Positions 2-46,000 of a stretch of 58,821 nucleotides of DNA are shown here, one piece after another (the first letter of the stretch is position 1; each line of letters starts with the position of its first letter). The translations under genes and the position numbers were made by a program. The stretch covers positions 1 through 58,821 of IMG/VR virus record IMGVR_UViG_3300049999_000147. One strand, 5' to 3'. Below the pieces are notes generated by a model. It saw only the letters and a program-made list of their open reading frames with translations, was not told the DNA's origin and searched no databases. The DNA is from a virus. Lineage: Duplodnaviria; Caudoviricetes.

Positions 2-3000
2 AATTTAAATGCACAAAACGTTGACTTAGAAACATTAACATTAGGACAAATTAGAAATCACTTAGTAGCATTAAGAGAGAATAGTACTGACATCACAGGT
101 AATATTCTTGCAGCAAGCAATTTGCGTGACAAAGATATTAGAGAACGTGGCGGCAATATTTTACAGCATAGTGGACCATTGCCATATGCATCGTTGTTCT
201 TACTAGATGATGCCGCGAACTTTGTTGATGGTGTTGCTTATGCATCTCGCGAATACGCTAAATTTAAATATAAATTTTTAGAATTAAGTAAATCGTTATC
301 GGGGGTTGATCCACAAGATCCGCCGGCTAGTGTAGACTTAATTTTAACAGCAATTAATGAAGTTAAAACAGTAGACTTTCCTTGGTACTACAGCGACATG
401 GTACCATACGGAGCCTCGAAGAATGAAATTAGTTATACAATTTTTAATCCCTTAATTCGTTCTTATGAAATTACAGAAATATTAGATGATACAGTATTAA
501 GCAATAGAGCGATACTAGTTTACTTAAACGGTTTGCAGTTAGTTAAAGATCGAGACTATATTTTTGAACAAGATCGTCCAGCAATATTAATACGCGAAAA
601 CATAACACTGGAAATTGATGACGTTCTTAAATTTGCCGAGTATGACAATACAGACGGCAATTATATTCCTGATACTCCTAGTAAGTTGGGATTATATCAC
701 AAGTATTATCCGATTAAGTTTTTAGATGATTCATACCAAACTCCTATAGATGTTATTTGCGGGCACGACGGTAGTATAACCCCATCGTTTGGAGACTTCC
801 GCGATGACTTCTTATTAGAATTAGAAAAACGAATTTATAATAATATCAAGGTAGCGGATAATGCAGTAACCGACGAATTGTATTATAATACAGTACCTGG
901 TAAATTTAGAAATAGTGATTATACACTAGAAGAATTTAACAATGTATTAAATTCTAGCTTCTTAGCATGGGTAGGTAATAATCGTTTAGACTTTTCCGCT
1001 AACGAAACATTTCAGGCCAGCGAGCCATTTACATGGAACTACGATAGACTACCGGATCGTATAGACGGAGAACTATTGCCTGGCTCTTGGAGAGCATGTT
1101 ACAGATATTATTATGACACAATAAATCCAAACTTAACTCCGTGGGAGATGTTAGGCTTCACTGTTATGCCAGAGTGGTGGGAATCATATTATGGTGGCGC
1201 ACCGTACACAGGCGGCAATGAATTACTATGGGAAGACTTAGAAGCAGGACTTATCAAAGAAGGATCACGTGCTGGTATAGACGAAAGATTTGTTCGTCCG
1301 GGCTTGTCGCAATCTATTCCTGTTGATGCAAACGGTAACTTATTAAGTCCGACAGCAATTATGGCAGCAACATTTAATCCTGGTCGTACAGCATCTGCAT
1401 GGGCCTCGGGTATGATGGGTCCTGTTGAAGCATCATGGAGAGCAAGCAGCGAGTACCCATTTGCAGTACAAAAAGCAATGGCAATTCTTAAACCAGCTAG
1501 ATACTTTGGTACATTAGCCGGTGTTAGTCATTATGTTAGAGACTTAGAGCTCAATCAAATTGTAGACAAAGAGTCCGGACATCATATAAGACAAACAGAT
1601 ATATTGTTAAACGGAAATGTTAATGCTGATTTTACAATTGACAGATCCGCAGGTTATTTAAACTGGATAGCAGATTATTTAACAAGCCAAGGTATGGCAG
1701 CAACAACAATTATATCACAATTGCTTGAAAACTATGATGTTAACTTAGCATATAGAATGGCAGGATTTAGTGACAAAGGATTAATAAAAGTATTAGCAGA
1801 ACAAAGTAGTCCATCAAGCACAAACGAAAGCGTATTGGTACCTGATGAAAACTATCATGTATATCTTGCTAAATCGGCACCTGTTAACAGATTATCTTAT
1901 AGTGCAGTTGTAATAGAAAAAACTAATTCTGGTTATGTAGTTAAAGGATACGATACAAATAATCCTTACTTTACAATTATACCAAGCGTGGTTAATTCCA
2001 ATTCTAATAGAATTAAAGTATTAGATAAAGACGCGGTTGTATTTTATGATTTCCAACCAAAAAAAATTAATGTTCCATATGGTTCACAGTTTTCAACTCA
2101 TCAACAAGTTGTTGACTTCTTAATAAGCTATCAACGTTACTTAGAAGCACAAGGATTTACATTCAATAGATTTGATGAAGAACTAATAGAAGCAAAAGAT
2201 TGGAAGTTGTCAGTACGTGAATTCTTATATTGGATACAACAAGGATGGAAACCATCAAGCATATTAATTTTAAGTCCAGTTGCAAGTCAAATTGACATAG
2301 TATCGGAAAATTCTGTATCAGATAAAATATCCAATAAACAGTATGCATCGAGACTATTAGATCAAAACTTTAAACTTCTTAAAAATAGCAAGTATAATGT
2401 TATGCGAGACGAAAGCGGAACCACTGTTAATGTTATTGATACGGGTTCGGTTATTTGTTACGCAGAAATAGATTTAGTACAATATGAACATGTATTGTTA
2501 TTTGACAATGTTACTGTATTTGATGATGTAATATATAAACCAGAACTAGGTAATAGACAGTTTAGATTACGTGTAGTAGGAAAGAAAACAGACGAGTGGG
2601 ACGGTAGTTTATACGCTCCGGGTTTTATTTATCAATCCGGTGAGTTAGATGATTGGACCTCAGGTCGGGACTATCTTAAAGGCGATATAGTATTATTTAA
2701 AACTAAACCGTACGTAGCATTGGAAAATTCTATTGCAGCGTCTGATTTTAATTATGCAGAATGGAAACAATTAGAGAAGGACGAACTAAAGTCGGGCCTA
2801 TTACCTAACTGGTCTACATTAGCCAAGAAGCCTCAGTCATACTATGATTCATACGGTGAGCTTAATACACAAGACGATATAGAATTTGGTCATGCATTAA
2901 TAGGATTTAAACCACGTTCATACTTAGATGAACTGGGCATTAACGAAACCACACAAATTGAATTATACAAAGGCTTCATTAAACAAAAAGGTACCGCTAA

Positions 3001-6000
3001 TGCTATTAACGAGATTACCGGAACAGAGTTTAAAAACTTACAGAACGATGTAACATTTTACGAAGACTGGGCAGTACGTGTCGGCGAATACGGTGCTATA
3101 GATACTAATCCGTTCTTGGAAATTGAGCTCGATGAACTTGCATATAGTGTGAATCCAGCACTTGTTAATTTTGCGTCTGCGGCAGATGCAGATGCGGCAG
3201 ATGGAATAACAATGTTTGCAGAACAACATTTACATAAAAGTTCTAACCAATATAATGGAACTATAGTATTAGACCGTGATTCTGCAAGCGATTACAGCAA
3301 CGACATTGCAACAGCAGGTTATGTGCGTATCGATGATACAAATACAACAATATTCAGTCTTGAAAATTATCTAGAATTGAATAATGTATTAGCAGACGTA
3401 GGGCGCGGATATACTATTTGGTGTGCTAAAGATTTAGCACAGCAATGGAATGTATTCAGAGTAACAGAAACAAACAATACAGTTACTGAAATTACTAATG
3501 CACTCGATGGATACATTACTGTTAAAACATTGGATCATCATAATTTAGAAGTCGATGATATATTTGTAATACTTGGGTTCGAACTCAATTACAATGGCTT
3601 TTTCCGTGTTGATTCTGTTGATGCATTAAACGAAGTTACTGTACAAACTACTAATGATAACCAAACATTAACTAGTATCGAGGGTACCGGTTCACTGTAT
3701 ACATTAGAAAGTGTACGCTTTGATTACATGAACGATGTAGACGCATTTAATCCATTGAACCAATGGCAACCAGATGAAAAAATATGGGTAGATAAAAACG
3801 TTGCAACAGTTGATTCTAATATTAATACATGGAATGTTTATAAAAAAACAATACCGTGGGATTTTAAAGAAAGCTTAGATAAATCAAGCCACAAAACAAA
3901 CAACGGCTTCGGCCAAGCGATAACCACAACAGTAGACGGCCTGATTGCACTTGTTAGTGAAACTGGGCTTAATGTCGTGCATACATTTATAAAGACCACC
4001 GAAGATAATTTTATACAAGGAACAACAATATTAGCAGATGGTAACGACACAGCGACATACGGTCAATCAATTGTAACATCAGCAGATAGATTAGCTGTAG
4101 GTGCTCCGGGGTCAAATAATACTAACGGATATGTTTATATATACGATAAGGATGTCTCGGCTGCATTTAACAGAAGTCAAATTATTCCTGGTAACTTAAC
4201 AGCAAAATTAGATACAAGTACAATTACTTTTACAGGCAACATCAGTTTAGCAGATCCGGGTGAATTTATTACACAAACTGTTAGTGGTGCAAATGCACAG
4301 GTTGTAGGACAACCTACTTTGTTCGGCACAATGAATTTTGTTGGTAACATTAGTACAGCTTCTGTAAATGATTATATAACACAATCAGTAAGTAGTGGTA
4401 ATGCACAAATAACATCAACGTCTACATTATTTGGTAATGTTAATTTTACAGGCAACATCAGTTTAGCAGATCCAGGTGAATATATTACACAAGCGGTAAG
4501 TGGTGCTAATATAGCAGTAATAAGTCAACCTACATTATTCGGTACAATGAACTTCAACGGCAACATTAGTACAGCTGATGTCGGAGAATATATTACACAA
4601 ACCGTTAGTGGCGCAAATGCAGAAGTAACAGCACAACCTACATTATTTGGTACAATGAATTTTGTTGGTAACATTAGTACAGCTGATGTTGGTGAGTTTA
4701 TTACACAAACTGTTAGTGGCGCAAATGCAGAAGTAACAGCACAACCTACATTATTTGGTACAATGAATTTTGTTGGTAATATTAGTACGGCCGATGTCGG
4801 AGAATATATTACACAAACCGTTAGTGGCGCAAATGCAGAAGTAACAGCACAACCTACATTATTTGGTAATATGGGTTTTGTTGGTAATCTTGAAGTAGCA
4901 ACTACCGGAGACTACATTACACAAGATGTCTCGGGAGCAAATGCTGAAGTAACAACAACTCCTCTACTATACGGCACAATGGATTTTGTTGCTAATATAA
5001 CTGCTAACATCGGAGAATATATTACTCAGTCAGTAAGTAGTGCAAATGCACTTGTGATAACTGCTAACGTTGTCTCTGGTACAACAGCAACCGTTCAATT
5101 TATCACAAACACATTTACAACCGGTTCAGGCAATATTGCTATAAGTGGAGGTAATGTAGACGTATATCCAACAACGTCCACTGTAACATCGTCTGTTGTA
5201 GACGTAGAATATTTAAGTGCTGGCGGTCCGTACATTAAGTTTACAACTGGTTCGGGTAACGTTGCTGTTAACGCAAGCGATGTTAATGTGTATCCAAGTT
5301 CAACTTCAGTAACATCTGGGGTCGCACTTGTAGAATACTTAAGCGGTGGCCCGTACATTAAGTTTACAAACGGTTCCGGTAATGTTGCTGTAGACGCAAC
5401 TAATGTCGCGGCTTATCCATCGGCTTCGACTGTAACAACTGGTGTCGCACTTGTTGAATATTTAAGTGGTGGTCCTTATATTAAATTTACAAACGGATCG
5501 GGCAATGTTGCTGTAGACGCAACTAATGTCGCGGCTTATCCATCGGCTTCGTCCGTAACATCTGGTGTCGCACTTGTTGAATATTTAAGTGGTGGATCTT
5601 ACATTAAGTTTACAGATGCCTCGGGTAACGTTGCTGTAAATGCAACTAATGTCGCGGCTTATCCAACATCAACTACAGTGACATCCGGTGCCGCAGCAGT
5701 ACAATATATTACTGTAAATCCATATGTTAAATTAACAAACGGTTCGGGTAATATTGCTATTAATGCAACTAATGTCGCATCATATCCAACATCAACTACA
5801 GTAACATCTGGTATAGTTGATGTAGAATATGTAAGTGCTGGTGGTTCATATATTAAATTTACAACCGGTTCGGGTAATATTGCTATTAATGCAGGTAACC
5901 TTGCTGTATATCCAACAGTATCTACAGTTACTTCAGGTATAGCTAATGTAGATTACTTAGCACATACCTTTGCTGGTCTTCCATCTTACATGACTATCGG

Positions 6001-9000
6001 ATCAGGCAACGTTGCTGTTAATGCAACTAATGTCGCTGCTTATCCATTAACAGAAACAATAACAGCAAATAGAGAACAGTTTGGTTCATCGATATCGATG
6101 AGTAGTGATAACAAGTGGTTGTATGTTGGTGCAATAGCAGCGAACAGAGTTTATATTTACGGTACAGATGACACAACTCCGACCAACATACAAGTTGAAT
6201 CGGTTAATAATAATAACTCAATTACAATGTCTGGTACTATTACAGCGGCGGCAGGACAATATATAATACAACCAGCAACAGGTGCCCAAGTTCAACTAAT
6301 AGGTAATGTGGCCGCTAGCAATACAGCCTTTGTTAATGTATTAACTAATATTGTTACTGGTGTGTCCGGCGGCAACTTACATATAGCAACAAGAAATGCA
6401 GAAGACGACGGATTTATTAGTAACGTCGATGCAAATGTAACAGCGATAAGCACATCATCAATACCAGAGACTGACACTATAACATTAGGGTTTACTCCAC
6501 ACGAAGCAAATGCAGCGGTATCCTTGCATATAACTACTGGCATAAAAACTTATATTCCAGAGTTAGACTACACATTGTTGGGCAATGTAATATCATTTAC
6601 TACAGCTATTGGTAACGGAGGCTTTTTACCTGTTGGTGATGTTGTTGTAAGACAACAACCATATTTTGTATTAGTAGATACTATACAAGGAACTATTGGT
6701 TCGGGCTTTGGTGATAGTGTTGAAGCATCTGCAGATAGTTTACAATTTGTTGTAACTGCACCAAACGCAACAGTACAAACAACAGAAACTATAGGAACAC
6801 TTAGTTTTGGTAATGTTGTTTCTGTTGTTACTGGTGATTATATTACACAAGAAACAACCGGTGCAAATGCCGTTGTTAGAATTAGTTCAACAGGGACCAC
6901 TGCTAATGTAAAATACTTATATGGTACATTTGCCGGAGGCAATGCAAACATTTTTGTTAACGGTAATAATATAACATCATCAAACCTAGCAAATTTAACA
7001 CTGACTGGCCTAACAACGGTAGCCAATGTTCTTAGTTCGTTTGCAAGTGCAGGAACAGCATATTTGTATGATAGACAAGTAGAATCATTTACTAGCACAG
7101 GAGTTAAAGAATATACAACAACTGGCAATATTGGAGATGTAAGACGTGTAACTATTAATGGTGAAGAAACAAGCAGATATACTGTACCTAGTGTAAATAC
7201 TATGCGCCTTAACGTAGTTTCGCCTGCCGGAAATACAATTGAAGTAGAAACTAATGCAATTAGATTAGTTGAACAGATAACACAACTTGATCCACAAACG
7301 GATGCCAAGTTCGGAACGTCGTTATCTATTTGTCCGTTTGGTTGTGCATTATATATTGGTGAACCGTACTACAACGAAAATAATATACGCAACACTGGCG
7401 CGGTTATTAAATTTCATAATAAATCAAAATTATATGGTTCTACAACAGGAACTGAAAAATTTCCATTACTTACAATAGGACATAGTATTCGTCTTAATAA
7501 TGTAGAAGTTACAGCAACAGGAACAACGCTTGATAGTTTTGTTGCTGATATTAATAATACAAATAATCTCGGTATAACTGCAATAAACGAAGACGATTTC
7601 CTTCGCTTAGATAGTACGCGAACAGTAACAAACAACAAAATTAGAGTTGGTACTGGTATTGGAACATTAGTTAGCGACTTAGGTCTACCTGTTTTCGAAG
7701 AAGCACAATTAATGACTAATCCGTTTGATACTCCTGGTGAGAATTTTGGTGATAGAATTACGATATCGGCCTCGGGTGATTTATTACTTATCGGAACAGA
7801 AGGTGGTACAACTATTGCAACTACAACGTTTGATTTAGCAGAAACTAGGTTTGATAATAATAGTATTTCGTTTAGTAGTTTTATTCCACGCAGCGGTAGT
7901 GCTTATGTTTACGAATCTTACGATGACCCTCGTAGCAATCCAGACTTCCCAACTCGGTTTACATATACTCAACAATTGAACCCAGGCGATTTAAATATTA
8001 ATGATGACTTTGGTTCAGCAGTACATGTTCGTGACAACAATATTTTTGTTGTAGCAAAAGATGATGACATGTTTGGTCCTGATACCGGAAGTCTTTACCG
8101 TTTTAAAAATGCCGATAGAGAAAAAGGTTGGAATTTACTACGCAACGAAGAAGATCAAGTCGACGTTGATACAATTAATAGAGTGTTCATGTATGATACA
8201 ACAACACAACATATTATCATAGACCTGCAAATATTTGATCCTGCAAAGGGCAAGATACTAGGCTTTGCTGAACAAGAGATATCGTTTGCAGCAGAGTTTG
8301 ACCCTGCAGTATATAATAGAGGAACAAACGAAGAAGCAAATATTAATGATAACCTATTTTGGAATACAAAACAAATTGGTAAAGTATGGTGGAATTTAGA
8401 TACACTACGCTACATAGATTACGAACAAGGTTCGTTAACATATCGTCAAGGAAATTGGGGGTCATTATTTCCTGGCTCTATTGTTGAAGTATGTGAGTGG
8501 GTAGAAAGCGATGTATTACCGAGCTCATATTCCGGAGATGGCGAGCCAAAATATGTAGACGATAGTGCGTATGTAGAAATTACGTTTGTTGATTCTATAA
8601 CAAATACTATTCGAAGCAAATATTATTATTGGGTTACAGGTAAATCATCATACGACCAAAATAATATTACACGTAACATTCCGCTTGAAACTATTAAGGG
8701 ATTTATCGAGGCACCAAAAACTCAAGGTGTGCCATATATCGCTGTTATTAAAAATTCTGCGATAGCAACATATAATATCGATACATTGTTAACAGATAAC
8801 ACCGTATTACATGTTGATCATGAGCTACTTAAAAATAATAATATTATACATTCAGAATACGAATTAATTCAAGAAGGCAATCCAAATACAAATATCGTAA
8901 CTCGTTTAGAAGATAAAATTATAGATAGTTTGTCCGGTGTTGATGCATACGGCAATTTAGTTCCTGACCCCGAACTATCAGATGCAGATAAGCTTGGTAT

Positions 9001-12000
9001 ACTTACTAGACCGAGACAATCTATGTTTGTCGATCAGCAAAAAGCATTGCGTGAATATATTGAATATGTTAATGGTGTATTAATTACTACACCGGTTGCA
9101 GTACAAACAGATCTGTCTGCACTTGATTCACAATCACCAAAACCAAAGTCGAGTGAATACGGAGTTGAAGTAGACACTGATGTTGATTTACAATATTTAA
9201 ATCCGCTGGCATATTCAACAGGATTCAAAGTATTGGTAATAGAAGACACAACACAAAACAATCTATGGACTGTATACGAATTAGATGAGTTTGATAAATG
9301 GGATCTTATACAGGTACAGGGATTTAAAACTAGTTTATTTTGGAATTATGTTGATTGGTTTGAAACTGGATATAGTTCGCTAACAAAGGTTGATTTTATA
9401 GCAGCAACTACACTTACCGCATTAACATTACCTTATGCACCGGGCGATTTAATAAAAATCGAAGATGCAGGTAAAGGACAATGGCAGGTAATATTAGTTA
9501 ATGCTAGTTCCAAGTTTGATGTCGTGGGGATTGAAAATGGCACAATAGCAGTTGATCCGGTATTAGCAGCAGGGTCCGACACTTCATTGGGGTTCGACAA
9601 CCAACGGTTTTCTGAAAAACGATTTGATCAGCAACCAGGACAAGAAGCGAGAGAAATTTTTACGACACTAAAGAATGATATCTTTGTAGATGAATTATAT
9701 GTGCAACGTAACAAATCTATATTCGTATTAATGAATTATATTTTCTCAGAACAACCAAGTGTTGACTGGGTATTTAAAACAAGCTTTATTGATGTAATAC
9801 ATAAATTAAGAAACTTAGAACAATATCCAAATTATATTAGAGATAACCAAACATACTACGAAGATTATATTGCTGAGGTTAAACCAGCAACGACTTCTAT
9901 TAGAGAATATTTAATACAATACGATGCGAATGATTTATTCGACGGTGTAATAAACGACTTTGATTTGCCTGGCTATTTTGATAGAGATTTAAATATGTTC
10001 CGTAGTCCAAGCGGCGAAATTGTACCCAAAGACACTCAGTTGCAAGCAACAGGATATATTGGCAACGAGTTAATAAACGACCAATATCCGTTATGGTACG
10101 CCAATAGACACGGTGAAGTAATGGATATAATTATAGTTAATCCTGGACTAGGGTATACAGAAGAACCAACAATTACAGTAGAAGGCGGTGGTGTTAATGC
10201 AGGTGGTGTAACTGCAAATGTAGCAGTAGATTTTGACACAGGGTCTCTTATTAGTATTACAGTTACAAGAACTGGTTCGGGATTCTCTGAAAGCCCGACT
10301 GTAATAATAAACGGTGGTGCTAATGTTACAGCAACAGCATATGCAACAATTAAAAACAATCAGGTTAGAAGCATTAATACCGACATGCGTTTTGACAGAA
10401 TAGGTTACAGTAGCCAGGTAAGACGTTGGGCAGCTAATACTTCTATTTTCTCCGGTGACTTAATTTCTCACAACGGAGTATGCTATCAAGCAAATGCAAA
10501 TGTAACAGCAGGAACAACATTTAATTCAGATAACTATGATGTTTATCACATAGATAATTTTGTGTCATCGAATGTAGCAGTTACTTATGGTGCAGCTGAT
10601 CGTATATTAGCTAACTACAATCCAACAGATGGCATGACGCAAATCGAAACAACCGAGAAAGAACTCTCAGTTAAAACAGCAACCGGCGGTATGATTTTTA
10701 CTGGAGATTTTGTTGCAAACATAGGTGCAACTATTAATCAGGGTGAGATAGCAAGCGCACGATTATTAGCTATATCTAGCATTAATGGTACAATGAAATT
10801 TGCTAGTAATGTATTCAGTACAAGCACAAACGATTATATAACGCAGACAGCAGGCGCCGCTAACGCACAAGCTATATCTAATTCTACTTTAACTGGCAAC
10901 ATTTCTTTTGCTGGAGATCTTGAAGCAAGAGCAAATGATTTTATAACACAAGGCAGTGGTAATGCATTGGTTCTTTCTAGATCTCTTAACGTTGGTAATG
11001 TTACTGTAAACGGAGATCTTAGTGCAAATATAGGCGACCTTATTACTCAACCATTACCAACAGGAACAATTTCGAGAATAACTGGTGCTACAACTAAATT
11101 TGGTAATATTACTTTAGAGGCAAATCTTACTGCCGACTTCACTGCTAATATTGGTGAATATATAACACAGGCACTAAGTGGTGCTAATGCACTTGTTACA
11201 TTAAGCCCGCATGATATAACAACAGCTATAACAACAGTAAAGGTAGAATATATATCCGGGTCATTTACAATCGGAGATGGTCCTGTCGCTACTACAGGTG
11301 GATGGACAGGAAACTTATTTCCAACTCAGACAACTGTTACATCATCTACAACACCAGTAGAATATGTTTACAGCAGGTTTACAACGGGTGCGGGCAATGT
11401 GTATATACAAGATGGTGTAATACTAAATGGAATTGATTCTGTTGATGTTAATGCGTACCCAACAATAGCAACAGTTACATCAAGTCAGGTAGATGTACAA
11501 TATAATAACGATGTGTTTACATTAGCAGCTAACGTTTCCGTTAACGGAGTCGATGCTAATATTGTTCCGTCTGCTAAGACAGTAATGAGTTCAGTAGATG
11601 TATCAATTTTAACTAATACATTTACAACCGGTAATGCAAATGTTTTTGTTAACGGAGTTGATGCAAATATTGCAATATCGACTTTCCCAATAACAACAGC
11701 GACAACTAACATAAAATACTTGTATGGAACATTTACTACAGGATCGGGTAACGTTACAATTAATGGAACAGACATTAATGCTTATCCTGCTAGTTTGAGT
11801 GTAGCCGCTAACACAACAGTATTTCTTGATTCAGTAGTTGATGTATTTTCAGGAATGTATATTACTGGTAACGGGGCAAATCTTGCAACAATTACCAGTT
11901 CTGTGTTTGATGCGACAACCGGTGACAAATATATTGTTTTAGATAGACCACAGACATTCCCTGTAGGAACATTAATTACAGCTAACTATGATAACTTAAG

Positions 12001-12913
12001 TCAAATATTAACTGGCGTAGATTACCCGGGCGTGGAAATTTCCGGTGTAGATTTTAATCAGCAAGTCGGCTTCGGCAACAATTACGATTTGTCAACATAT
12101 GACAACGTAACATACGATGCTGATGGTAACGCAATATTCGATGAGTCTGTACTAGATACTATTATTCGCAGTACATACACCGATGCAAGTTTAGGCATAC
12201 GCGCAGAGGATATAATAGTAGATGGTGGTGCATACGTAGATGATTATAGCAGTCATGCTCCAGAAGAATTAGTACCGGGTATTGTATTTGATACACTAGA
12301 TATGAAAATTTATACTAAGGTGTCCGGCGGCGCAAATACTGAAATTGCTGGGTACAGAGTATTCAGCGACATGCTACATATTCCGGAATATATTCGAATA
12401 GCAGATTCTGCTACTACAATATTAACTCAACCGTTGTTGTTGACAGATACCGAAATACATGTTGGCGATGCATCTGTATTATTAGTACCAAGTCCAAGCA
12501 ATACTACTCCGGGTGTTATTTTTATTGGTGCTGAGCGTATTACATATTATACACTAGATGCAACAACAAATACATTAGGACAATTACGCCGAGGCACAAG
12601 TGGTACAGGTGCTCCTACAGAACACACAATTGGAACCGAAGTGCAAAATGCTAGCTTTACTGAAGAGGTGCCAGATTTAGCAATCATCGGTGAAAAAATT
12701 AACGATATACAAGAATTACTAAATGCTGGTACAGTAACAGCGGTAGATGGCACTGGATTAGATGGTTCCACAACATCAGCAGCAAACTTTATTAAGGGCC
12801 AACCAGCAGCATATTATAACGTAGATAATGTACTAGCGATTGAAAACACGGTAAATATATTTGACGAGCTATTAATCACAGAATCCGGTGATACATTAAT
12901 AACAGAGAATTAA
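2..12913 (+). CDS. Giant virion structural protein (baseplate wedge/tail-associated), 5'-truncated; contains 7 FG-GAP-like propeller blades and nested repeats
   Basis: The frame is open from position 2 (NLNAQNVDLETLTLGQIRNHL...), so the TTG at 122 is not the true start. FG-GAP-like blades: GFGQAI, TYGQSI..LAVGAPG, QFGSSI..LYVGA, GFGDSV, KFGTSL..LYIGEP, NFGDRI, DFGSAV. Also has a NPGLGYTEEPTITV motif, and lies upstream of fibre genes. Confidence 0.75.
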   Translation, partial: NLNAQNVDLETLTLGQIRNHLVALRENSTDITGNILAASNLRDKDIRERGGNILQHSGPLPYASLFLLDDAANFVDGVAYASREYAKFKYKFLELSKSLSGVDPQDPPASVDLILTAINEVKTVDFPWYYSDMVPYGASKNEISYTIFNPLIRSYEITEILDDTVLSNRAILVYLNGLQLVKDRDYIFEQDRPAILIRENITLEIDDVLKFAEYDNTDGNYIPDTPSKLGLYHKYYPIKFLDDSYQTPIDVICGHDGSITPSFGDFRDDFLLELEKRIYNNIKVADNAVTDELYYNTVPGKFRNSDYTLEEFNNVLNSSFLAWVGNNRLDFSANETFQASEPFTWNYDRLPDRIDGELLPGSWRACYRYYYDTINPNLTPWEMLGFTVMPEWWESYYGGAPYTGGNELLWEDLEAGLIKEGSRAGIDERFVRPGLSQSIPVDANGNLLSPTAIMAATFNPGRTASAWASGMMGPVEASWRASSEYPFAVQKAMAILKPARYFGTLAGVSHYVRDLELNQIVDKESGHHIRQTDILLNGNVNADFTIDRSAGYLNWIADYLTSQGMAATTIISQLLENYDVNLAYRMAGFSDKGLIKVLAEQSSPSSTNESVLVPDENYHVYLAKSAPVNRLSYSAVVIEKTNSGYVVKGYDTNNPYFTIIPSVVNSNSNRIKVLDKDAVVFYDFQPKKINVPYGSQFSTHQQVVDFLISYQRYLEAQGFTFNRFDEELIEAKDWKLSVREFLYWIQQGWKPSSILILSPVASQIDIVSENSVSDKISNKQYASRLLDQNFKLLKNSKYNVMRDESGTTVNVIDTGSVICYAEIDLVQYEHVLLFDNVTVFDDVIYKPELGNRQFRLRVVGKKTDEWDGSLYAPGFIYQSGELDDWTSGRDYLKGDIVLFKTKPYVALENSIAASDFNYAEWKQLEKDELKSGLLPNWSTLAKKPQSYYDSYGELNTQDDIEFGHALIGFKPRSYLDELGINETTQIELYKGFIKQKGTANAINEITGTEFKNLQNDVTFYEDWAVRVGEYGAIDTNPFLEIELDELAYSVNPALVNFASAADADAADGITMFAEQHLHKSSNQYNGTIVLDRDSASDYSNDIATAGYVRIDDTNTTIFSLENYLELNNVLADVGRGYTIWCAKDLAQQWNVFRVTETNNTVTEITNALDGYITVKTLDHHNLEVDDIFVILGFELNYNGFFRVDSVDALNEVTVQTTNDNQTLTSIEGTGSLYTLESVRFDYMNDVDAFNPLNQWQPDEKIWVDKNVATVDSNINTWNVYKKTIPWDFKESLDKSSHKTNNGFGQAITTTVDGLIALVSETGLNVVHTFIKTTEDNFIQGTTILADGNDTATYGQSIVTSADRLAVGAPGSNNTNGYVYIYDKDVSAAFNRSQIIPGNLTAKLDTSTITFTGNISLADPGEFITQTVSGANAQVVGQPTLFGTMNFVGNISTASVNDYITQSVSSGNAQITSTSTLFGNVNFTGNISLADPGEYITQAVSGANIAVISQPTLFGTMNFNGNISTADVGEYITQTVSGANAEVTAQPTLFGTMNFVGNISTADVGEFITQTVSGANAEVTAQPTLFGTMNFVGNISTADVGEYITQTVSGANAEVTAQPTLFGNMGFVGNLEVATTGDYITQDVSGANAEVTTTPLLYGTMDFVANITANIGEYITQSVSSANALVITANVVSGTTATVQFITNTFTTGSGNIAISGGNVDVYPTTSTVTSSVVDVEYLSAGGPYIKFTTGSGNVAVNASDVNVYPSSTSVTSGVALVEYLSGGPYIKFTNGSGNVAVDATNVAAYPSASTVTTGVALVEYLSGGPYIKFTNGSGNVAVDATNVAAYPSASSVTSGVALVEYLSGGSYIKFTDASGNVAVNATNVAAYPTSTTVTSGAAAVQYITVNPYVKLTNGSGNIAINATNVASYPTSTTVTSGIVDVEYVSAGGSYIKFTTGSGNIAINAGNLAVYPTVSTVTSGIANVDYLAHTFAGLPSYMTIGSGNVAVNATNVAAYPLTETITANREQFGSSISMSSDNKWLYVGAIAANRVYIYGTDDTTPTNIQVESVNNNNSITMSGTITAAAGQYIIQPATGAQVQLIGNVAASNTAFVNVLTNIVTGVSGGNLHIATRNAEDDGFISNVDANVTAISTSSIPETDTITLGFTPHEANAAVSLHITTGIKTYIPELDYTLLGNVISFTTAIGNGGFLPVGDVVVRQQPYFVLVDTIQGTIGSGFGDSVEASADSLQFVVTAPNATVQTTETIGTLSFGNVVSVVTGDYITQETTGANAVVRISSTGTTANVKYLYGTFAGGNANIFVNGNNITSSNLANLTLTGLTTVANVLSSFASAGTAYLYDRQVESFTSTGVKEYTTTGNIGDVRRVTINGEETSRYTVPSVNTMRLNVVSPAGNTIEVETNAIRLVEQITQLDPQTDAKFGTSLSICPFGCALYIGEPYYNENNIRNTGAVIKFHNKSKLYGSTTGTEKFPLLTIGHSIRLNNVEVTATGTTLDSFVADINNTNNLGITAINEDDFLRLDSTRTVTNNKIRVGTGIGTLVSDLGLPVFEEAQLMTNPFDTPGENFGDRITISASGDLLLIGTEGGTTIATTTFDLAETRFDNNSISFSSFIPRSGSAYVYESYDDPRSNPDFPTRFTYTQQLNPGDLNINDDFGSAVHVRDNNIFVVAKDDDMFGPDTGSLYRFKNADREKGWNLLRNEEDQVDVDTINRVFMYDTTTQHIIIDLQIFDPAKGKILGFAEQEISFAAEFDPAVYNRGTNEEANINDNLFWNTKQIGKVWWNLDTLRYIDYEQGSLTYRQGNWGSLFPGSIVEVCEWVESDVLPSSYSGDGEPKYVDDSAYVEITFVDSITNTIRSKYYYWVTGKSSYDQNNITRNIPLETIKGFIEAPKTQGVPYIAVIKNSAIATYNIDTLLTDNTVLHVDHELLKNNNIIHSEYELIQEGNPNTNIVTRLEDKIIDSLSGVDAYGNLVPDPELSDADKLGILTRPRQSMFVDQQKALREYIEYVNGVLITTPVAVQTDLSALDSQSPKPKSSEYGVEVDTDVDLQYLNPLAYSTGFKVLVIEDTTQNNLWTVYELDEFDKWDLIQVQGFKTSLFWNYVDWFETGYSSLTKVDFIAATTLTALTLPYAPGDLIKIEDAGKGQWQVILVNASSKFDVVGIENGTIAVDPVLAAGSDTSLGFDNQRFSEKRFDQQPGQEAREIFTTLKNDIFVDELYVQRNKSIFVLMNYIFSEQPSVDWVFKTSFIDVIHKLRNLEQYPNYIRDNQTYYEDYIAEVKPATTSIREYLIQYDANDLFDGVINDFDLPGYFDRDLNMFRSPSGEIVPKDTQLQATGYIGNELINDQYPLWYANRHGEVMDIIIVNPGLGYTEEPTITVEGGGVNAGGVTANVAVDFDTGSLISITVTRTGSGFSESPTVIINGGANVTATAYATIKNNQVRSINTDMRFDRIGYSSQVRRWAANTSIFSGDLISHNGVCYQANANVTAGTTFNSDNYDVYHIDNFVSSNVAVTYGAADRILANYNPTDGMTQIETTEKELSVKTATGGMIFTGDFVANIGATINQGEIASARLLAISSINGTMKFASNVFSTSTNDYITQTAGAANAQAISNSTLTGNISFAGDLEARANDFITQGSGNALVLSRSLNVGNVTVNGDLSANIGDLITQPLPTGTISRITGATTKFGNITLEANLTADFTANIGEYITQALSGANALVTLSPHDITTAITTVKVEYISGSFTIGDGPVATTGGWTGNLFPTQTTVTSSTTPVEYVYSRFTTGAGNVYIQDGVILNGIDSVDVNAYPTIATVTSSQVDVQYNNDVFTLAANVSVNGVDANIVPSAKTVMSSVDVSILTNTFTTGNANVFVNGVDANIAISTFPITTATTNIKYLYGTFTTGSGNVTINGTDINAYPASLSVAANTTVFLDSVVDVFSGMYITGNGANLATITSSVFDATTGDKYIVLDRPQTFPVGTLITANYDNLSQILTGVDYPGVEISGVDFNQQVGFGNNYDLSTYDNVTYDADGNAIFDESVLDTIIRSTYTDASLGIRAEDIIVDGGAYVDDYSSHAPEELVPGIVFDTLDMKIYTKVSGGANTEIAGYRVFSDMLHIPEYIRIADSATTILTQPLLLTDTEIHVGDASVLLVPSPSNTTPGVIFIGAERITYYTLDATTNTLGQLRRGTSGTGAPTEHTIGTEVQNASFTEEVPDLAIIGEKINDIQELLNAGTVTAVDGTGLDGSTTSAANFIKGQPAAYYNVDNVLAIENTVNIFDELLITESGDTLITEN
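4217..5080 (+). repeat. Eight tandem 'A' repeats, ~108 bp / 36 aa (LFGTMNFVGNISTADVGEYITQTVSGANAEVTAQPT)
   Basis: caacctacattatttggtacaatgaat recurs at 4634 and 4742 (108 bp period); copies 4-6 are nearly identical. Confidence 0.95.
5087..6070 (+). repeat. Eight tandem 'B' repeats, ~123 bp / 41 aa (VALVEYLSGGPYIKFTNGSGNVAVDATNVAAYPSASTVTTG)
   Basis: gtcgcacttg recurs at 5321, 5444 and 5567 (123 bp period); copies 3-5 are nearly identical. Confidence 0.95.
10685..11812 (+). repeat. Second, more diverged block of five A-type then five B-type repeats
   Basis: Five G-x-x-x-F..(D/E)(Y/F/L)ITQ-like units are followed by five V-x-Y..FT(T)G..N(V)..NG..D.N.(Y)P-like units. Confidence 0.8.
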
Positions 12914-14628: not shown

Positions 14629-16260
14629 ATGGCTTACACAATTACAAAAACAGATGGTACTACTTTAGGCACAATTGCCGACGGTACCATTAATACGTCC
14701 GCAACTAGTTTAACACTAATAGGACGTAACTATAGTAACTACGGTCAGGCAATGACCGACAATTTAGTTTCTCTTTTAGAAAACTTTTCCGATACAGCAG
14801 AACCTACTAATCCATTAGAAGGACAGCTATATTGGAATAAATCAGATAAAAGATTGCGTATTTACAATGGCAGCACTTTTAAAATTATTGCTAAATTACA
14901 ATCTGCCATCACAGCACCTACTACCATAACAGCAGGTGATATGTGGTGGGATAGTGTAGAAGAACAATTGCATGTTTATAACGGATCTAATCCGTATGCG
15001 TCAACAGGGTGGATACTTATATCTCCATTATACAAAAAGTCAAAAGGCAAGAGTGGCGCAATTCCAGAACAACTTACAGACTCGGGCTTGCAAACACAGG
15101 ATGTTGTTTCTCTATATCACAATGGTACAAGAACTGCAATTATAAGCGCAAATACATTTGCCCCAAATGTAGCTATATCTGGATTTACAGTCGTTAACGC
15201 AGGATTAACATCAAACAGTACGTTAAACAGCGGACAATATTTTATAGTAGCTAACGATTCTAATCAGTTAGGCGGTATATTAGCAACAAATTATTTGCGG
15301 TCGGACATAAACGATCTCACAACAGGCAACCTAACAATTCAAAACAACGGTGGTCTAACACTTGGCCTAACTAGTAATTTATCGGTAACAACCGATAGTG
15401 CTGGCAGTGCAACAGTATCTACCACAAAAGACGGTGGCACATTAATATTTCAAAATACAAAAACAATTGGCGGTAGCCCATTTACTACTTTAACATTATC
15501 AGCAGATGATGCAGTAGGTATTACATCATCACGCAAATTAACAATCAGCGATGCAACCGTGTCTACTAACGCTACAACAGGTGCTCTTGTTGTTACCGGC
15601 GGTGTGGGAATAACTGGTGATACACATATAACTGGCAATGTTACTTCATCTACATGGTTTGTAGGCGATATAACAGGAACGTCTGACATGGTGCGAAGCA
15701 TTGTTCCTATTACATTAGGCGGCCATGGTGCAGATAACATAACCGAAGCACAACAAAATTTACTATTAGAACCTAACGTTAATGTACAGGCTTTTAATGT
15801 AGAACTAAGAGCTATTACGCTTGTTGGTGCTAACGGCTTATTAACACGTACCGCAAGTGGTGCAGCGACAGCTAGAGAAATTGTTTCAGCAGATGCTAAT
15901 ATAGCAGTTACTATGGGCGACGGTATTTCTGGCAATCCAACATTAACATTGAATAAAGATGCAGCATTTGACCAACCGACTTGTTTAACGCAACCAGAAA
16001 ACACATCCGATAAAACAATTGCTACCACAGAATTTGTAATAAATCAAATACCAGAAGTTACTTCAAATATTTGGTGGGCGGGCGCACCAAGTACAGGTCT
16101 CGCTACGCATGCCGCAGCATTGTATGGAACAATTTTAGTATCGCGAGTACGAAGAAGTCGTGTTATCGGTGGCGGTAATGGTAGTTATGTTCAGTACTAT
16201 TGGCAAACAGGTGGTTATATCAAAATAGACTCTAATAGTAATTCGTGGGTATCATTCTAA
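14629..16260 (+). CDS. Tail fibre / baseplate-attached fibre protein
   Basis: N-terminus MAYTITKTDG..NTSATSLTLIGRNY is shared with 17872; P-x-x-GQLYW and GDMWWD motifs; STNATTGALVVTGGVGI fibre motif. Confidence 0.75.
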   Translation: MAYTITKTDGTTLGTIADGTINTSATSLTLIGRNYSNYGQAMTDNLVSLLENFSDTAEPTNPLEGQLYWNKSDKRLRIYNGSTFKIIAKLQSAITAPTTITAGDMWWDSVEEQLHVYNGSNPYASTGWILISPLYKKSKGKSGAIPEQLTDSGLQTQDVVSLYHNGTRTAIISANTFAPNVAISGFTVVNAGLTSNSTLNSGQYFIVANDSNQLGGILATNYLRSDINDLTTGNLTIQNNGGLTLGLTSNLSVTTDSAGSATVSTTKDGGTLIFQNTKTIGGSPFTTLTLSADDAVGITSSRKLTISDATVSTNATTGALVVTGGVGITGDTHITGNVTSSTWFVGDITGTSDMVRSIVPITLGGHGADNITEAQQNLLLEPNVNVQAFNVELRAITLVGANGLLTRTASGAATAREIVSADANIAVTMGDGISGNPTLTLNKDAAFDQPTCLTQPENTSDKTIATTEFVINQIPEVTSNIWWAGAPSTGLATHAAALYGTILVSRVRRSRVIGGGNGSYVQYYWQTGGYIKIDSNSNSWVSF

Positions 16261-17871: not shown

Positions 17872-19332
17872 ATGGCATATACAATTACAACAACAGACGG
17901 CAGCTCTTTAGCATCCGTTGCAGACGGTACAACTAATACGTCCGCAACTAGTTTAACATTAATAGGAAAAAACTACGCAGGATATGGTATTTTCTTAAAT
18001 GACAACTACGTGAAATTATTAGAGAATTTTTCCAATACAACAGCACCAAGCACACCTTTAACAGGTCAACTTTGGTACGATAGCTCACTTAGAATATTAA
18101 AGGTCTATGGTGACAGTCAGTGGAAAGCAATATCAAGTGCAACAACAGGCACCGCGCAACCAGCATCTCCGGTTGTTGGTGATTTGTGGTGGGACACTTC
18201 AAATTCACAACTTAAGGTTTATAGTGGTAGTGCATGGGTAACAGTAGGACCGGCATTTACAGCAGCTTCAGGTACATCTGGTGCGATCGTAGAAAGCATT
18301 GCAGATTCTACACCAAGTAACCACGTTGTTATTAAACTTTACGTTTCAACAACAGTAGTAGGTATTGTTAGCAAAGATGCTGAATTTACTCCTGCTTCTG
18401 CTATACCTGGTTTCTCAACAATTAAACCGGGTATTAACTTAATTAGCTCTGCTACATTAACTAACGCACAATTTACAGGTGATGCAAGTAATGCAAATAC
18501 ATTAAACAGTTTATCAGCAAGTTCATTTTTACGTTCAGATCAAGACACAACTACAGCCTATAGCATAACAGCCAGTGGCGGTGTAACTGTAGGTTCGTTT
18601 TTAGATTTATCATCAACAGCTGGTTCGGCATCGTTAATTAACACAAACTTAGGTGATGAGTTAAATCTTATTGTTACTACTGGCGGCGGTGCTATTATTG
18701 GTCTTAGTGTTGATGGAGCAACAGGCGATATTTCAACAGCAACAGATTTAACAGTTGGTGTGGATTTAACTGTTTCTGGAACAAGTACATTATCAGGCAC
18801 AACCAATTTACAAGCATTAACAGTATTATCTAATAATTTAGAATCGGATGTTACTGACACAAACACAATTGGTACAAGTCTCAAGAAGTTTAACGAAATG
18901 CATGCCACTACTTTTTATGGTACAGCAGTAACAGCACAATACGCGGATTTGGCTGAACGCTTCGAAGCAGATGCAGAATACACCGCAGGTACCGTTGTTG
19001 CATTAGGCGGCATTAATGAAATTACAAAAGAACAAGATGAATTAAGTGATAACGTTTTTGGTGTTATTAGTGGTAAGGCAGCATACTTAATGAATGATGC
19101 TTATGATAAAACAGATGAAACACATCCAGCAGTCGCAATGAGCGGACGAGTTCCAGTTAATGTAATTGGTCCTGTTGCAAAAGGCGATCGTTTAGTAAGC
19201 GCAGGAAATGGTTTAGCACGAAGCGCAGGCAAAGGTGAAATTACAGCATTTAACGTTATTGGACGAGCCTTAGAAGATAAGCCTTTAGAATCAGAAGGTA
19301 TTGTCGAAGCTATCGTTAAGATAAATAGTTAA
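17872..19332 (+). CDS. Tail fibre protein with C-terminal peptidase-G2-like intramolecular chaperone domain
   Basis: N-terminus paralogous to 14629; C-terminal YADLAERF...GTVV...VAMSGRVPVNVIGPVAKGDRLVS. Confidence 0.75.
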   Translation: MAYTITTTDGSSLASVADGTTNTSATSLTLIGKNYAGYGIFLNDNYVKLLENFSNTTAPSTPLTGQLWYDSSLRILKVYGDSQWKAISSATTGTAQPASPVVGDLWWDTSNSQLKVYSGSAWVTVGPAFTAASGTSGAIVESIADSTPSNHVVIKLYVSTTVVGIVSKDAEFTPASAIPGFSTIKPGINLISSATLTNAQFTGDASNANTLNSLSASSFLRSDQDTTTAYSITASGGVTVGSFLDLSSTAGSASLINTNLGDELNLIVTTGGGAIIGLSVDGATGDISTATDLTVGVDLTVSGTSTLSGTTNLQALTVLSNNLESDVTDTNTIGTSLKKFNEMHATTFYGTAVTAQYADLAERFEADAEYTAGTVVALGGINEITKEQDELSDNVFGVISGKAAYLMNDAYDKTDETHPAVAMSGRVPVNVIGPVAKGDRLVSAGNGLARSAGKGEITAFNVIGRALEDKPLESEGIVEAIVKINS

Positions 19333-26364: not shown

Positions 26365-27368
26365 TGACAAAAATAAATATTCAACCTCATTTAGGCCAAC
26401 GCGAGATGTACAACGTAGGAATACTATGTTCTAAAATTATCCAGAGTATGGAAGAAACTGGTAAAGCATATCTTTACTCCTTAGAGTCTTGTGATAATTA
26501 TCATACCGGACTCTATGATTTACTTGATCAGTTATGCAGATATTGGAATTGGGATAAAAAGAATATAACAATAGATCAATGCAACCCATTTACACAACAC
26601 CCAGAGTATAATTTACTTTTGAGTTATTCAACGCAGAATATAGTCCTTGCCTGGATGGACCTTAATAAACAAGAAATAAAATCGTGGAACAAAGAAAAAT
26701 ATTACGGAATGTTTATTGGCAGAGCAGATGCTTCTCGAATAAGAGCTCTTTATAACCATAACTTGTTTGAATTTAAAGAGAAAGGATTAACATCATTCAA
26801 TGATGATTTATTTAACTATATGTGTTTACCAGAACTTTTTAATTACCTATCTGATTCGAAGCAAACGTATACAGAAATGTTAACAATGAAAACTCCGTAT
26901 AGTGATATCGATACAGTAATGGCTCCTCCTATAACCCCACCGTATAATACAGATGCTAAAATTTGGTCCAGAGTATACGAACGTATAGGTATAGAAATTA
27001 TTTGCGAAACTAATTTAATAGAATCAAATTTTGATGCAACAGAAAAATTATTTAGACCGATGTATTACAAGAAACCGTTTTTAGTAATTAGTGCACCGGA
27101 CTTTCTTCCAGTAGCTAGAAAAATATACGGTATTAAAACATTTTCTGATATATTTCCGGAAACATATGACGAGCTTGGCGGGAGCCTGCGTGTCGATGAA
27201 GTATTTAATGTTCTTAAAGGAATAATAACATCAGGATTAATACATGAGTTAGAAGAAAAGTGTAAAGAAATAACAGAACATAATTATAATATTGTTCTTG
27301 ACATGATGCAAAAAGATTTTGTACCAAAAAATATAGAAGATTATGCAAGAGAAAAAAATAAAAGATAA
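26364..27368 (+). CDS. Putative glycosyltransferase (GT-B-like C-terminus)
   Basis: EIICET...ATEKLFRPMYYKKPFLV...G.KTF...ETYD...EHNY, similar to GT10-like nucleotide-sugar binding motifs. Confidence 0.45.
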   Translation: MTKINIQPHLGQREMYNVGILCSKIIQSMEETGKAYLYSLESCDNYHTGLYDLLDQLCRYWNWDKKNITIDQCNPFTQHPEYNLLLSYSTQNIVLAWMDLNKQEIKSWNKEKYYGMFIGRADASRIRALYNHNLFEFKEKGLTSFNDDLFNYMCLPELFNYLSDSKQTYTEMLTMKTPYSDIDTVMAPPITPPYNTDAKIWSRVYERIGIEIICETNLIESNFDATEKLFRPMYYKKPFLVISAPDFLPVARKIYGIKTFSDIFPETYDELGGSLRVDEVFNVLKGIITSGLIHELEEKCKEITEHNYNIVLDMMQKDFVPKNIEDYAREKNKR

Positions 27369-28737
27369 TAAAAGTGTGTTCATGACAGCAGCAGACGAAA
27401 TGAAAGATAAGCTAGGTCCTAGCTTATGTTTAGCTAAGTGGCAGCAAGTAAGTTTACACCTGCCAACAGGAATGACTAACAGTTGTTATCACCCACCCTT
27501 ACATAAAATAGATGCAGAGCCGTTAAAGTTCCACCCTGGTAAGCTACATAATACAAAGCATAAGAAGCTTCAACGTAAACTAATGAAAGAAGGTATACGC
27601 CCAGAAGAATGTAGCACGTGTTGGAGTGCAGAAGATAACGGACAATTAAGCGACAGACACTATCGTTCTAGCGAGCCTTGGGCGTCGGAACATTATGATA
27701 AAATAACAAACGAAGCATGGGACAAAGATGTTGTTCCTAGTTATGTAGAAGTTAACTTTAGTCACGCATGTAATCTAGCTTGCAGTTATTGCAGCCCGCA
27801 GTTCTCATCTACGTGGGGCAAAGATGTTAATCGTTGGGGGCCGTATCCAACCAGCAAGCCACACAATAATCCGGAACACTTGCCAAAGCCCATACCAGTA
27901 CGCGAAGACAATCCGTACGTGGACGCATTTTGGAAATGGTGGCCGGAGTTGTATCCTAAGCTTAAACACTTTAGGATGACAGGTGGCGAACCCTTAATGG
28001 ATAAGAATACGCATCGCGTATTCGACTATATACTATCCTTTCCTAAGTCCGATTTGCACGTAGACGTCACTAGTAATTTTAGTGTAGAGCCTACATTATT
28101 TGACCCATACTTTGATAAGGTTAAACAGTTATGCAAAGGCGAACGTATAGAACATTTTATGCAGTATGTTAGCGTCGACACCGGGGATCCAATGAAAGCA
28201 GAATATATACGTGACGGCTTAGATTATAATAGACTAATAAGATATGTCGAAAAGTTTTTAGGGAAAATACCCGAGCGCAATAGTCTAACGTTTATTATAA
28301 CGTTAAACAATCTCAGCATCACAAGTCTACAATTATTATTGCAAAGGATATTAACTTATAGGAAAGCATACAACATAGACTATCAACGTGTTTGGTTTGA
28401 TACGCCAGTGCTTCGTTCGCCGACATGGCAGAGCATACAAATATTACCGTTGTCTTATGTTAGACAGCTAGAAGATATTGTAGAATGGATGAAGCGCAAC
28501 CAAACAGACGAAGAGGATAACAAGTTAATCGGATTTAAGGATTACGAAATACAACGTATGGAACGTAACTTAGCATGGATGAAAGAAGAGTTAGACGATA
28601 GCTATATTAAAGAACAACGTGCAGACTTTTACAGATTCTTTGAGGAATATGACTTACGTAGGAATAGAGATTTTGTAACAGTATTTCCAGAGATGCGTGA
28701 ATGGTATCAGGAGTGTAAATTTCATGCCGGGAAGTAA
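27343..28737 (+). CDS. Radical SAM protein with N-terminal twitch/SPASM-like Cys cluster
   Basis: CNLACSYC, TGGEP; N-terminal CLAKW..SCYHP..CSTCW. Confidence 0.9.
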   Translation: MQEKKIKDNKSVFMTAADEMKDKLGPSLCLAKWQQVSLHLPTGMTNSCYHPPLHKIDAEPLKFHPGKLHNTKHKKLQRKLMKEGIRPEECSTCWSAEDNGQLSDRHYRSSEPWASEHYDKITNEAWDKDVVPSYVEVNFSHACNLACSYCSPQFSSTWGKDVNRWGPYPTSKPHNNPEHLPKPIPVREDNPYVDAFWKWWPELYPKLKHFRMTGGEPLMDKNTHRVFDYILSFPKSDLHVDVTSNFSVEPTLFDPYFDKVKQLCKGERIEHFMQYVSVDTGDPMKAEYIRDGLDYNRLIRYVEKFLGKIPERNSLTFIITLNNLSITSLQLLLQRILTYRKAYNIDYQRVWFDTPVLRSPTWQSIQILPLSYVRQLEDIVEWMKRNQTDEEDNKLIGFKDYEIQRMERNLAWMKEELDDSYIKEQRADFYRFFEEYDLRRNRDFVTVFPEMREWYQECKFHAGK

Positions 28738-45580: not shown

Positions 45581-46000
45581 TTAACACCCGTCGTATGCTA
45601 TATCGGAGTAATCCACTTCGTTAATAATCTCGTTAATGTTTACACTTTCTTTTAACGTAATATCAAATTCGATTAATTCAATTGTTATATCTGGAAAGTC
45701 TGGGTCTAAAAACCATGCTCTGTCATGTGCTAATCTTTTATCGACTAACTTTCGTTTAGTAAATATCTTTGCGGCATGAATATCATCTACTTTGGTGTAA
45801 TGCTTATTTAATGCCCATGTAACAGTTGACACCCCATCTGCCTCAACTATAGTTCGTTTAATGGCGTATCCTTCTAACTTCATTTTAATCTCCTTAATAC
45901 ATTTACTACAATTAATATCGTTGTGCAGTAATCGTTCGTTTAATTTATCTGTAGTATCAAAATCATTAGTGCTAATATTACGACAACTGCATACAATCAT
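45581..46000 (-). CDS. Protein with an N-terminal BFD-like [2Fe-2S] motif in frame with a hypothetical domain
   Basis: MIVCSCRNIS...CSKC; internal AAGGAG plus ATG at 45883. Confidence 0.55.
   Translation of the reverse strand: MIVCSCRNISTNDFDTTDKLNERLLHNDINCSKCIKEIKMKLEGYAIKRTIVEADGVSTVTWALNKHYTKVDDIHAAKIFTKRKLVDKRLAHDRAWFLDPDFPDITIELIEFDITLKESVNINEIINEVDYSDIAYDGC

Follow-up and report, generated by a model that had tools for sequence, protein, structure and literature searches.

Evidence for a recursively self-inserted beta-barrel domain in a giant baseplate-region protein of a phage

Results and Discussion

A giant ORF with two blocks of half-domains

The window analyzed here is the whole of the virus record IMGVR_UViG_3300049999_000147 from IMG/VR (Duplodnaviria; Caudoviricetes), 58,821 bases long and of an estimated completeness of 17%; hydrothermal-vent metagenomes contain near-identical DNA. 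On its plus strand, an open reading frame (ORF) at 2..12913 encodes a giant protein of the virion or baseplate region, 4303 aa of which lie within the window, its 5' end being cut by the window edge. Near the C-terminus of this protein, five copies of one half-domain (A1 to A5) are followed by five copies of another (B1 to B5), together spanning 10673..11812. We refer to this region as block 2, and to a larger one of the same kind, with eight A halves (4202..5062) and eight B halves (5075..6064), as block 1. Two single A-B domains, the first of them diverged, stand at 6197..6406 and 6782..7006. Block 2 is best read, with a probability of roughly 80%, as one beta-barrel domain of ~75 residues recursively inserted into itself, five copies deep, which would form an out-and-back rod.

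The giant ORF belongs to phrog_10938 ("virion structural protein"; E-value 2.5e-233, 778.6 bits, residues 6-877), and its first 866 aa are ~33% identical to proteins of PA5oct-like and other jumbo phages. By tblastn, 93 phage records matched, 12 of which cover at least 80% of these 866 aa. The PA5oct homologue, gp355 (3857 aa), is annotated as found in virions by mass spectrometry and is encoded 3' of the baseplate hub/lysozyme and wedge genes and 5' of a gp10-like gene. In the PA5oct annotation, this position (after the hub and gp6-like wedge genes, before a gp10-like gene) would suit a T4 gp7-type baseplate wedge protein; the window itself starts too late for the upstream genes. The giant protein also contains an FG-GAP_2 repeat (Pfam PF14312, 36.2 bits for a cut-off of 23, best stretch aa 1345-1381), and its sequence matched no solved chain in the PDB.

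Composition of block 2

The ten motifs quoted in the initial annotation all occur in the giant ORF in the order claimed, five of type A and then five of type B, with the A motifs starting at aa 3577, 3612, 3647, 3680 and 3720 (nt 10730-11159). The 3' end given there (11812) agrees with ours, while the 5' border moves from 10685 to 10673. Hidden Markov models (HMMs) of A and B, built solely from block-1 units, recovered five units of each type in block 2 (independent E-values, iE, are given below), and detected the two single A-B copies weakly. A second profile, made from four contiguous A-B domains with the two single copies in its seed, was searched in six frames against the whole record, and provides the additional E-values (E) below.

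The outermost first half, A1 (10673..10777, ATINQ), is divergent (iE 0.02, E 0.039) and in phase with A2 (10778..10879, DYITQ; iE 2.3e-8, E 5e-5), which is followed by A3 (10880..10981, DFITQ; iE 2.1e-7), A4 (10982..11086, DLITQ; iE 5.8e-4) and the innermost first half, A5 (11090..11203, EYITQ; iE 7.6e-13). A translated turn of 9 residues (11204..11230) leads to the innermost second half, B1 (11231..11341, VEYISGSFT; iE 3e-5), and then to B2 (11342..11479, VEYVYSRFT, with a 9-residue extra loop; iE 5.1e-6), B3 (11480..11587, VQYNNDVFT, a weak HMM match; iE 0.057, E 0.05), B4 (11588..11698, VSILTNTFT; iE 0.16, E 7.4e-6) and the outermost second half, B5 (11699..11812, IKYLYGTFT; iE 4.8e-11, E 1e-8). 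With the A-B profile, A1 (E 0.039) and B3 (E 0.050) are marginal alone, yet exactly in phase.

The A-B profile gave 26 matches in the record, every one inside the giant ORF and none elsewhere: four full A-B matches, seven A-only and seven B-only matches in block 1, and four A-only and four B-only matches in block 2. This bears out the proposal that equal numbers of A and B occur four times in the protein (8/8, 1/1, 1/1 and 5/5). The two single copies, previously placed at ~6218-6460 (diverged) and 6794-6985, were found by this profile and by a family HMM.

Block 2 is no assembly artefact. It is reproduced piecewise, with 0 differences, by Logan contigs of runs X4, X5 and X7. In run X1, possibly the source sample, a 36.6-kb contig extends over 6023-12000 without an indel or joint in the block.

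A recurrent domain made of A and B

A search of 1,835,955,588 representative sequences with the A-B profile returned 54 proteins at E <= 0.001, mostly through whole-profile matches and often with several matches per protein; two of the 54 (P0034 and P0048) carry apparently unrelated repeats, and were set aside and left out of the family scripts. Judged by sequence, A directly followed by B is thus a recurrent stand-alone domain of ~75 residues, which sustains the view of A and B as halves of one domain. No name for this domain was found in Pfam, PHROGs, the PDB (by sequence) or the ESM Atlas, and hhalign detected no relation between the A and B profiles (probability 0.6%).

The unit patterns of the relatives reported here are examples identified by eye, not a family-wide count. 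An A-A-B-B arrangement was seen in eight of them (P0003, P0010, P0012, P0019, P0024, P0025, P0027 and P0029), and three first halves with three second halves in P0028. P0016 (467 aa) has three first and four second halves, two of the latter being nearly identical; it must be a naturally occurring intermediate with unbalanced halves, or else the product of faulty assembly. Since P0016 departs from the rule, equality of A and B appears strongly favored but not obligatory. In both P0028 and P0016 the cut in the domain follows the second strand (after ITQ) instead of the third, and self-nesting therefore seemingly arose at two different loops of one domain family.

The C-terminal module of the relatives offers a direct comparison of nested and plain forms, being A-A-B-B in P0012, P0024 and P0027 and plain A-B in P0031, P0045, P0041, P0035, P0049, P0038, P0026 and P0055. 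MAFFT aligned the plain B to the outer B of the nested modules and placed the inner B as an insertion. Of the two A halves of a nested module, the outer one more closely resembled the plain A in 7 of 8, 3 of 8 and 8 of 8 comparisons.

Automated A/B strings for the whole family, generated under three schemes, were inconsistent because the B halves are poorly conserved, and the HMM count across homologues that had been suggested initially was unreliable for that reason. Used as tblastn queries against 50,697 phage records (low-complexity filter on), the two blocks and a single A-B domain gave no match. Residues 3545-3950 likewise had no match in a word-index search of candidates 2366-7531 aa long, and a scan for close relatives found none. 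Among possible relatives of other depth, five viral and seven metagenome loci show only single, tandem or A[AB] patterns.

Two other settings of these halves were observed. P0017 and P0044 carry A-B domains in glycine-rich proteins with Pfam Gly_rich_2 and tail-type PHROG matches, and the domain is therefore not confined to giant baseplate proteins. In a family of proteins of 1300-1600 aa (P0004, P0006, P0007, P0023, P0032, P0040, P0050 and similar ones), a short segment takes the place of the normal B after an A-type half, and ordinary A-B domains come next; the A half with its short segment may be a variant domain. This family had no Pfam or PHROG match; proteins related to its C-terminal part, annotated as proteases, occur in the jumbo phages Atu_ph07 and Phosso.

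Both blocks interrupt a continuous host sequence

Block 1 comprises 619 aa between QIIPGNLTA (4172..4198, directly 5' of the block in an FG-GAP-like repeat region) and TANREQFGSS, where five homologues have 2-5 aa. The flanks of block 2 are ~395 aa apart in the window and 30 aa apart in P0009. Compared with these homologues, both blocks are insertions into an otherwise continuous host sequence. Because they interrupt such a sequence, the ends of each block must meet side by side; a nested out-and-back chain therefore fits, whereas a collinear rod does not.

Predicted structure and register of pairing

Structure predictions were made for the three inner layers of block 2 (aa 3627-3862, numbered 1-236 below), i.e., A3 (residues 1-34), A4 (35-70), A5 (71-108), B1 (118-154), B2 (155-200) and B3 (201-236). 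The alignment had 37 rows: the query, the matching three block-1 layers, six A-A-B-B rows, the two single copies of the window and 27 single A-B rows. In the A-A-B-B rows, the last 2-4 residues are misplaced. A five-layer alignment was dropped because MAFFT had matched B5 with the outer B of those rows.

AlphaFold2 modeled the three layers with a mean predicted local distance difference test score (pLDDT) of 77.7 and a predicted template modeling score of 0.56, with 83-89 for the outer A3, 81-85 for the outer B3 and less than 50 for the extra loop of B2 (residues 180-187). In this model, strands 146-162 and 193-208 run unbroken across the B1/B2 and B2/B3 borders, and the turn between A5 and B1 appears as a gap of 8 residues that separates strand 102-108 from strand 117-126. 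We compared the model with 48,161 chains using VIA-align, and the figures given here refer to the 50 matches listed. Thirty-six of them match residues ~70-74 to 139-172, i.e., the contiguous A5+B1, with A5 falling within a barrel at 73..156. Six others span residues 37 to 179-201 with 55-73 residues aligned, as expected for a discontinuous A4+B2 barrel, and six more span 1-3 to 222-236 with 53-67 aligned (discontinuous A3+B3), the last two being of other kinds. Among the listed matches, N-terminal barrels of ATPases fit all three layers, and the B domain of pyruvate kinase fits both the inner and the outer one.

For a split-chain fold with ESMFold2, the same layers were divided into an A arm (residues 1-111) and a B arm (112-236). 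The score for A-arm/B-arm interaction (ipSAE, an interface score from predicted aligned errors) was 0.73 (0.70, 0.73 and 0.73 over the runs), whereas none of three controls exceeded 0.00. As a rough guide only, because our own alignment was used, that mark is attained by 58 of 80 solved complexes but by just 2 of 110 mismatched pairs. Runs agreed in at least 94% of contacts (454-460 contacts), with a partner pLDDT of at least 84. The ESMFold2 model thus supports binding of the A arm to the B arm, and memory is an unlikely source of this result because the domain has no sequence relative in the PDB. Among the 25 most certain contacts, eight join A3 to B3, 14 join A4 to B2, two join A5 to the start of B2 and one joins A4 to the start of B3; none joins A3 to B1 or A5 to B3.

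The suggestion that pairing is nested rather than collinear is upheld by these models for the inner three layers, both in the A3-B3 and A4-B2 contacts and in the nested barrel matches, and extends by inference to five. Recursive insertion of the same domain over several levels is accordingly modeled at three levels, while levels four and five are read from sequence only; in both blocks the whole nest is an insertion with its ends meeting in a loop of the host.

Age and growth of the blocks

Tandem Repeats Finder detected block 1, with a period of 108 nt for the A halves (36 aa each, A8 35 aa) and 123 nt for the B halves (38-44 aa), and found no repeat in block 2. The DNA of the block-1 units is 89-93% identical among A4-A6 and 81-89% among B3-B5, which indicates a recent expansion. 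Block 2 is likely older, as had been proposed, because its units are far less similar and show no repeat at the DNA level.

When the DNA identity matrices of the block-1 A and B units were compared in mirror order, the correlation was 0.78, with 32 of 40,320 orders as good or better; the collinear order gave 0.46 (2,180 of 40,320). The closest A pair (A5 and A6, 93%) corresponds to the closest B pair (B4 and B3, 89%). None of the listed independent Logan contigs bridges the near-identical units in the middle of block 1 (4606-4839 and 5410-5504), and summed contig depth of run X1 is there ~2x that of the flanks. The count of eight is therefore that of the original assembly and is unconfirmed.

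A model of nested barrels and its alternatives

In the proposed architecture, each copy of the domain would be interrupted in the loop that joins strands three and four, with a whole further copy inserted there. The chain would run outward via A1 to A5, make the 9-residue turn and come back via B1 to B5, building a barrel from A5+B1 at the tip, then A4+B2, A3+B3 and A2+B4, and finally A1+B5 at the base. Equal counts of A and B would follow, because every barrel needs one half of each. With its two ends adjacent, such a rod could be accommodated within a loop of the giant protein, and block 1 would be an equivalent device, eight copies deep, in a loop of the FG-GAP-type region. Each layer would add very roughly 2.5-3 nm, a value estimated from strand lengths only, and we infer that the rods may project from the baseplate as stalks or spacers. 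Changes in length would arise through unequal recombination among similar units within each arm; because pairing would start at the tip, any imbalance would show up at the base as a single half without a partner.

A number of observations weigh against this architecture, or at least against its full depth. AlphaFold2 run on the single sequence of the whole of block 2 gave a pLDDT of 40.3. Our models cover the inner three layers, with A1, A2, B4 and B5 (layers four and five) outside them; both folds are predictions on one common alignment in which the third layer is covered by two rows, both from the window, and the barrel topology of the AlphaFold2 model is deduced from aligned ranges, i.e., from the first and last aligned residues only. 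A1 is weak by HMM, and a broader family HMM (at least 5 bits) misses it and reads block 2 as AAA[AB]BBBB. The test of unit similarity gave no signal in block 2, where r was -0.20 for the mirror order (rank 80 of 120) and 0.07 for the collinear one (rank 54 of 120), and the mirror signal of block 1 comes mostly from its near-identical middle units, whose number and order are unconfirmed by independent contigs. The VIA-align Z-values are middling (best 7.3, most 4-5), so that the fold assignment is not secure. Lastly, P0016 with its 3/4 count breaks the rule of equal halves, and the initial idea that equal counts express a structural constraint stands as a strong preference, but not as a strict law.

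Pairing between chains is one unlikely alternative, in which the A arm of one subunit would pair with the B arm of a neighbor in the baseplate, and rods would be shared between copies. Baseplate proteins are present in several copies, and the split-chain fold, where the arms assemble without a covalent link, makes pairing in trans physically conceivable. The nested domains of a bacterial system considered below, the Si3 insertion, are also described as sometimes swapping secondary-structure elements (PMC11515920). On the other hand, the A5-B1 turn has only 9 residues and the contiguous A-B domain recurs in dozens of proteins, the confident single-chain AlphaFold2 model closes all three layers, and the ends of the host loops abut in homologues for both blocks. 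Collinear pairing of A1 with B1 through A5 with B5, e.g., in a closed ring or compact cluster, is very improbable: the block-2 similarity test is compatible with it and block 1 shows the weak positive correlation in that order, but the lack of A3-B1 and A5-B3 pairs next to eight A3-B3 ones among the best contacts, the nested barrel matches, and the alignment of the outer B of A-A-B-B relatives with the B of plain ones all disagree with it. A 9-residue turn would moreover be unable to span a rod of several domains.

We give similarly little credence to two unrelated tandem arrays, an A solenoid and a B solenoid whose copy numbers are equal by chance. This would suit the dissimilar A and B profiles and the DNA of block 1, which looks like two separate tandem arrays. 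Speaking against it are the four instances of equal counts within this protein, the recurrence of A-B elsewhere as one compact unit, and the predicted interleaving of the two arms through hundreds of contacts, with a score well above the controls. Most doubtful of all is that the repeat counts arose during metagenome assembly. While the middle of block 1 (~4606-4839 and 5410-5504), unbridged as described, would allow for such an error, the units of block 2 are too diverged to have been collapsed or multiplied, and the contigs of runs X1, X4, X5 and X7 reproduce that block. The nested architecture is directly supported by models for three layers, and would extend to all five.

A more tentative idea, which we think has a smaller chance of being right than of being wrong, is that these rods are tunable in length. 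Gain or loss of a unit on one arm by such unequal recombination would do no more than create the unpaired half described above; this would be completed to a full layer by a second event on the other arm, and the stalk would change by one barrel at a time. The mirror similarity of A4-A6 with B5-B3 in block 1 could then record recent steps, and the 3/4 relative P0016 could be an intermediate caught between two events. As both of its arms keep near-identical units, block 1 is a rare chance to study how balanced architectures grow.

Fold and known systems

On the basis of the models, the A-B domain is called a small closed beta-barrel, possibly related to the barrels of baseplate wedge proteins. 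The best listed match of the inner A5-B1 barrel is to a Klebsiella phage baseplate (9f4a_AY, residues 767-847; Z 7.3, root-mean-square deviation 3.3, 77 residues aligned), a chain of 1031 residues which we would only guess, from its length, to be a gp7 homologue. It is followed by gpJ-like wedge chains with Z of 4.1-5.2 (7kh1_A5 and 9ay5_Y, 5.2; 9g8s_C, 4.8; 8v3w_E, 4.7; 8kea_b and 9ki1_H, 4.5). Foldseek found nothing at E <= 0.001 in the PDB, and nothing in BFVD save one row at exactly 1.0e-03; "Baseplate J like" proteins in BFVD align over ~100 columns with a probability of 1.00 but an E-value of 0.02. Even with E-values as high as 10 allowed, neither the giant protein nor any of four A-B units matched a Baseplate_J-type Pfam model. 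Overall, the wedge barrels (P2 gpJ/T4 gp6-like, from KP1, XM1, P1, Mu, A-1(L), diffocin and phiCD508) resemble the A-B domain in being its top structural matches and in their baseplate-module setting. Their Z-values are below the level at which the tool indicates more than a common arrangement, barrels of translation factors, pyruvate kinase and ATPases score equally, and the wedge barrels have no sequence relation to the A-B domain and are not reported here as self-nested.

The closest known case is the Si3 insertion in the beta' subunit (RpoC2) of cyanobacterial RNA polymerase. Si3 is described as eight SBHM domains, four of them formed from distant chain segments, in a body ~150 Å long (PMC10895346), with HABAS domains nested within further HABAS domains (PMC11515920); six levels of nesting are reported for it alongside a survey of 48,551 insertion events (PMC13114784). 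As in the phage blocks, one small beta domain is inserted into itself, domains are discontinuous, and the chain folds back to give an elongated body in a loop of the host protein. The domain family differs, however, and the host here is a phage baseplate-region protein: the match of our model to SBHM/HABAS (CATH 2.40.50.100) is weak by Foldseek (8emb_E, a Si3 entry; E 0.3, probability 0.07), absent from the 50 VIA-align matches listed and without a Pfam counterpart. The phage blocks are clean A(n)B(n) runs ending in one tip domain; Si3, in contrast, is branched, and its head consists of continuous domains. Block 1 is eight copies deep as assembled, compared with six levels in the deepest published case that we found.

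A keyword search of the open-access literature, supplements excluded, found no phage example of recursive same-domain insertion. In the needle-like tip of the T4 long tail fiber protein gp37, the chain reportedly runs to the tip and back, with N- and C-proximal segments paired along the rod, although this tip is said to be an interwoven trimer without discrete repeated barrels. The A-B domain is thus a new domain family, and the phage protein a new host for a known but rare architecture. It adds a family absent from Pfam and PHROGs, and rare among 1.84 billion representatives, to the few natural recursive domain insertions. To standard tools, such nested proteins resemble two unrelated tandem repeats, which misleads domain callers and defeats single-sequence structure prediction, and their layout is a natural template for rods of adjustable length.

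Other features of the window

Just upstream of block 2, a match to CBM_5_12 at 10427-10510 (aa 3476-3503) remains below threshold (22.1 bits for a cut-off of 26.2), and the annotation of one PA5oct-like homologue names a chitin-binding type-3 domain. An acidic, conserved C-terminal tail (window ~12700-12910) is common to the giant proteins and to fragments (P0012, P0024, P0026, P0027, P0031 and others), and may be a docking or assembly signal.

Downstream of the giant ORF, ORFs have PHROG matches to tail-needle and fiber-like families. Two of the downstream ORFs (14629-16260 and 17872-19332, plus strand) have N-terminal PHROG matches in common (phrog_14394, 15511, 8309 and 1325) and different C-termini, that of the latter matching tail-fiber families; they look like paralogous fiber proteins with swapped distal parts. 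Further along, at 27343-35009 on the plus strand, five ORFs in a row (464, 454, 838, 392 and 437 aa) each match radical SAM PHROGs, mainly phrog_14086, a tandem run that is unusual in a phage. The GC and AT skews change sign at ~41000-42000, where long ORFs go from the plus to the minus strand, marking the boundary of two divergent gene blocks. On the minus-strand side of this boundary, an HNH endonuclease (45997-47253) and an ATPase (48527-49621) are encoded.

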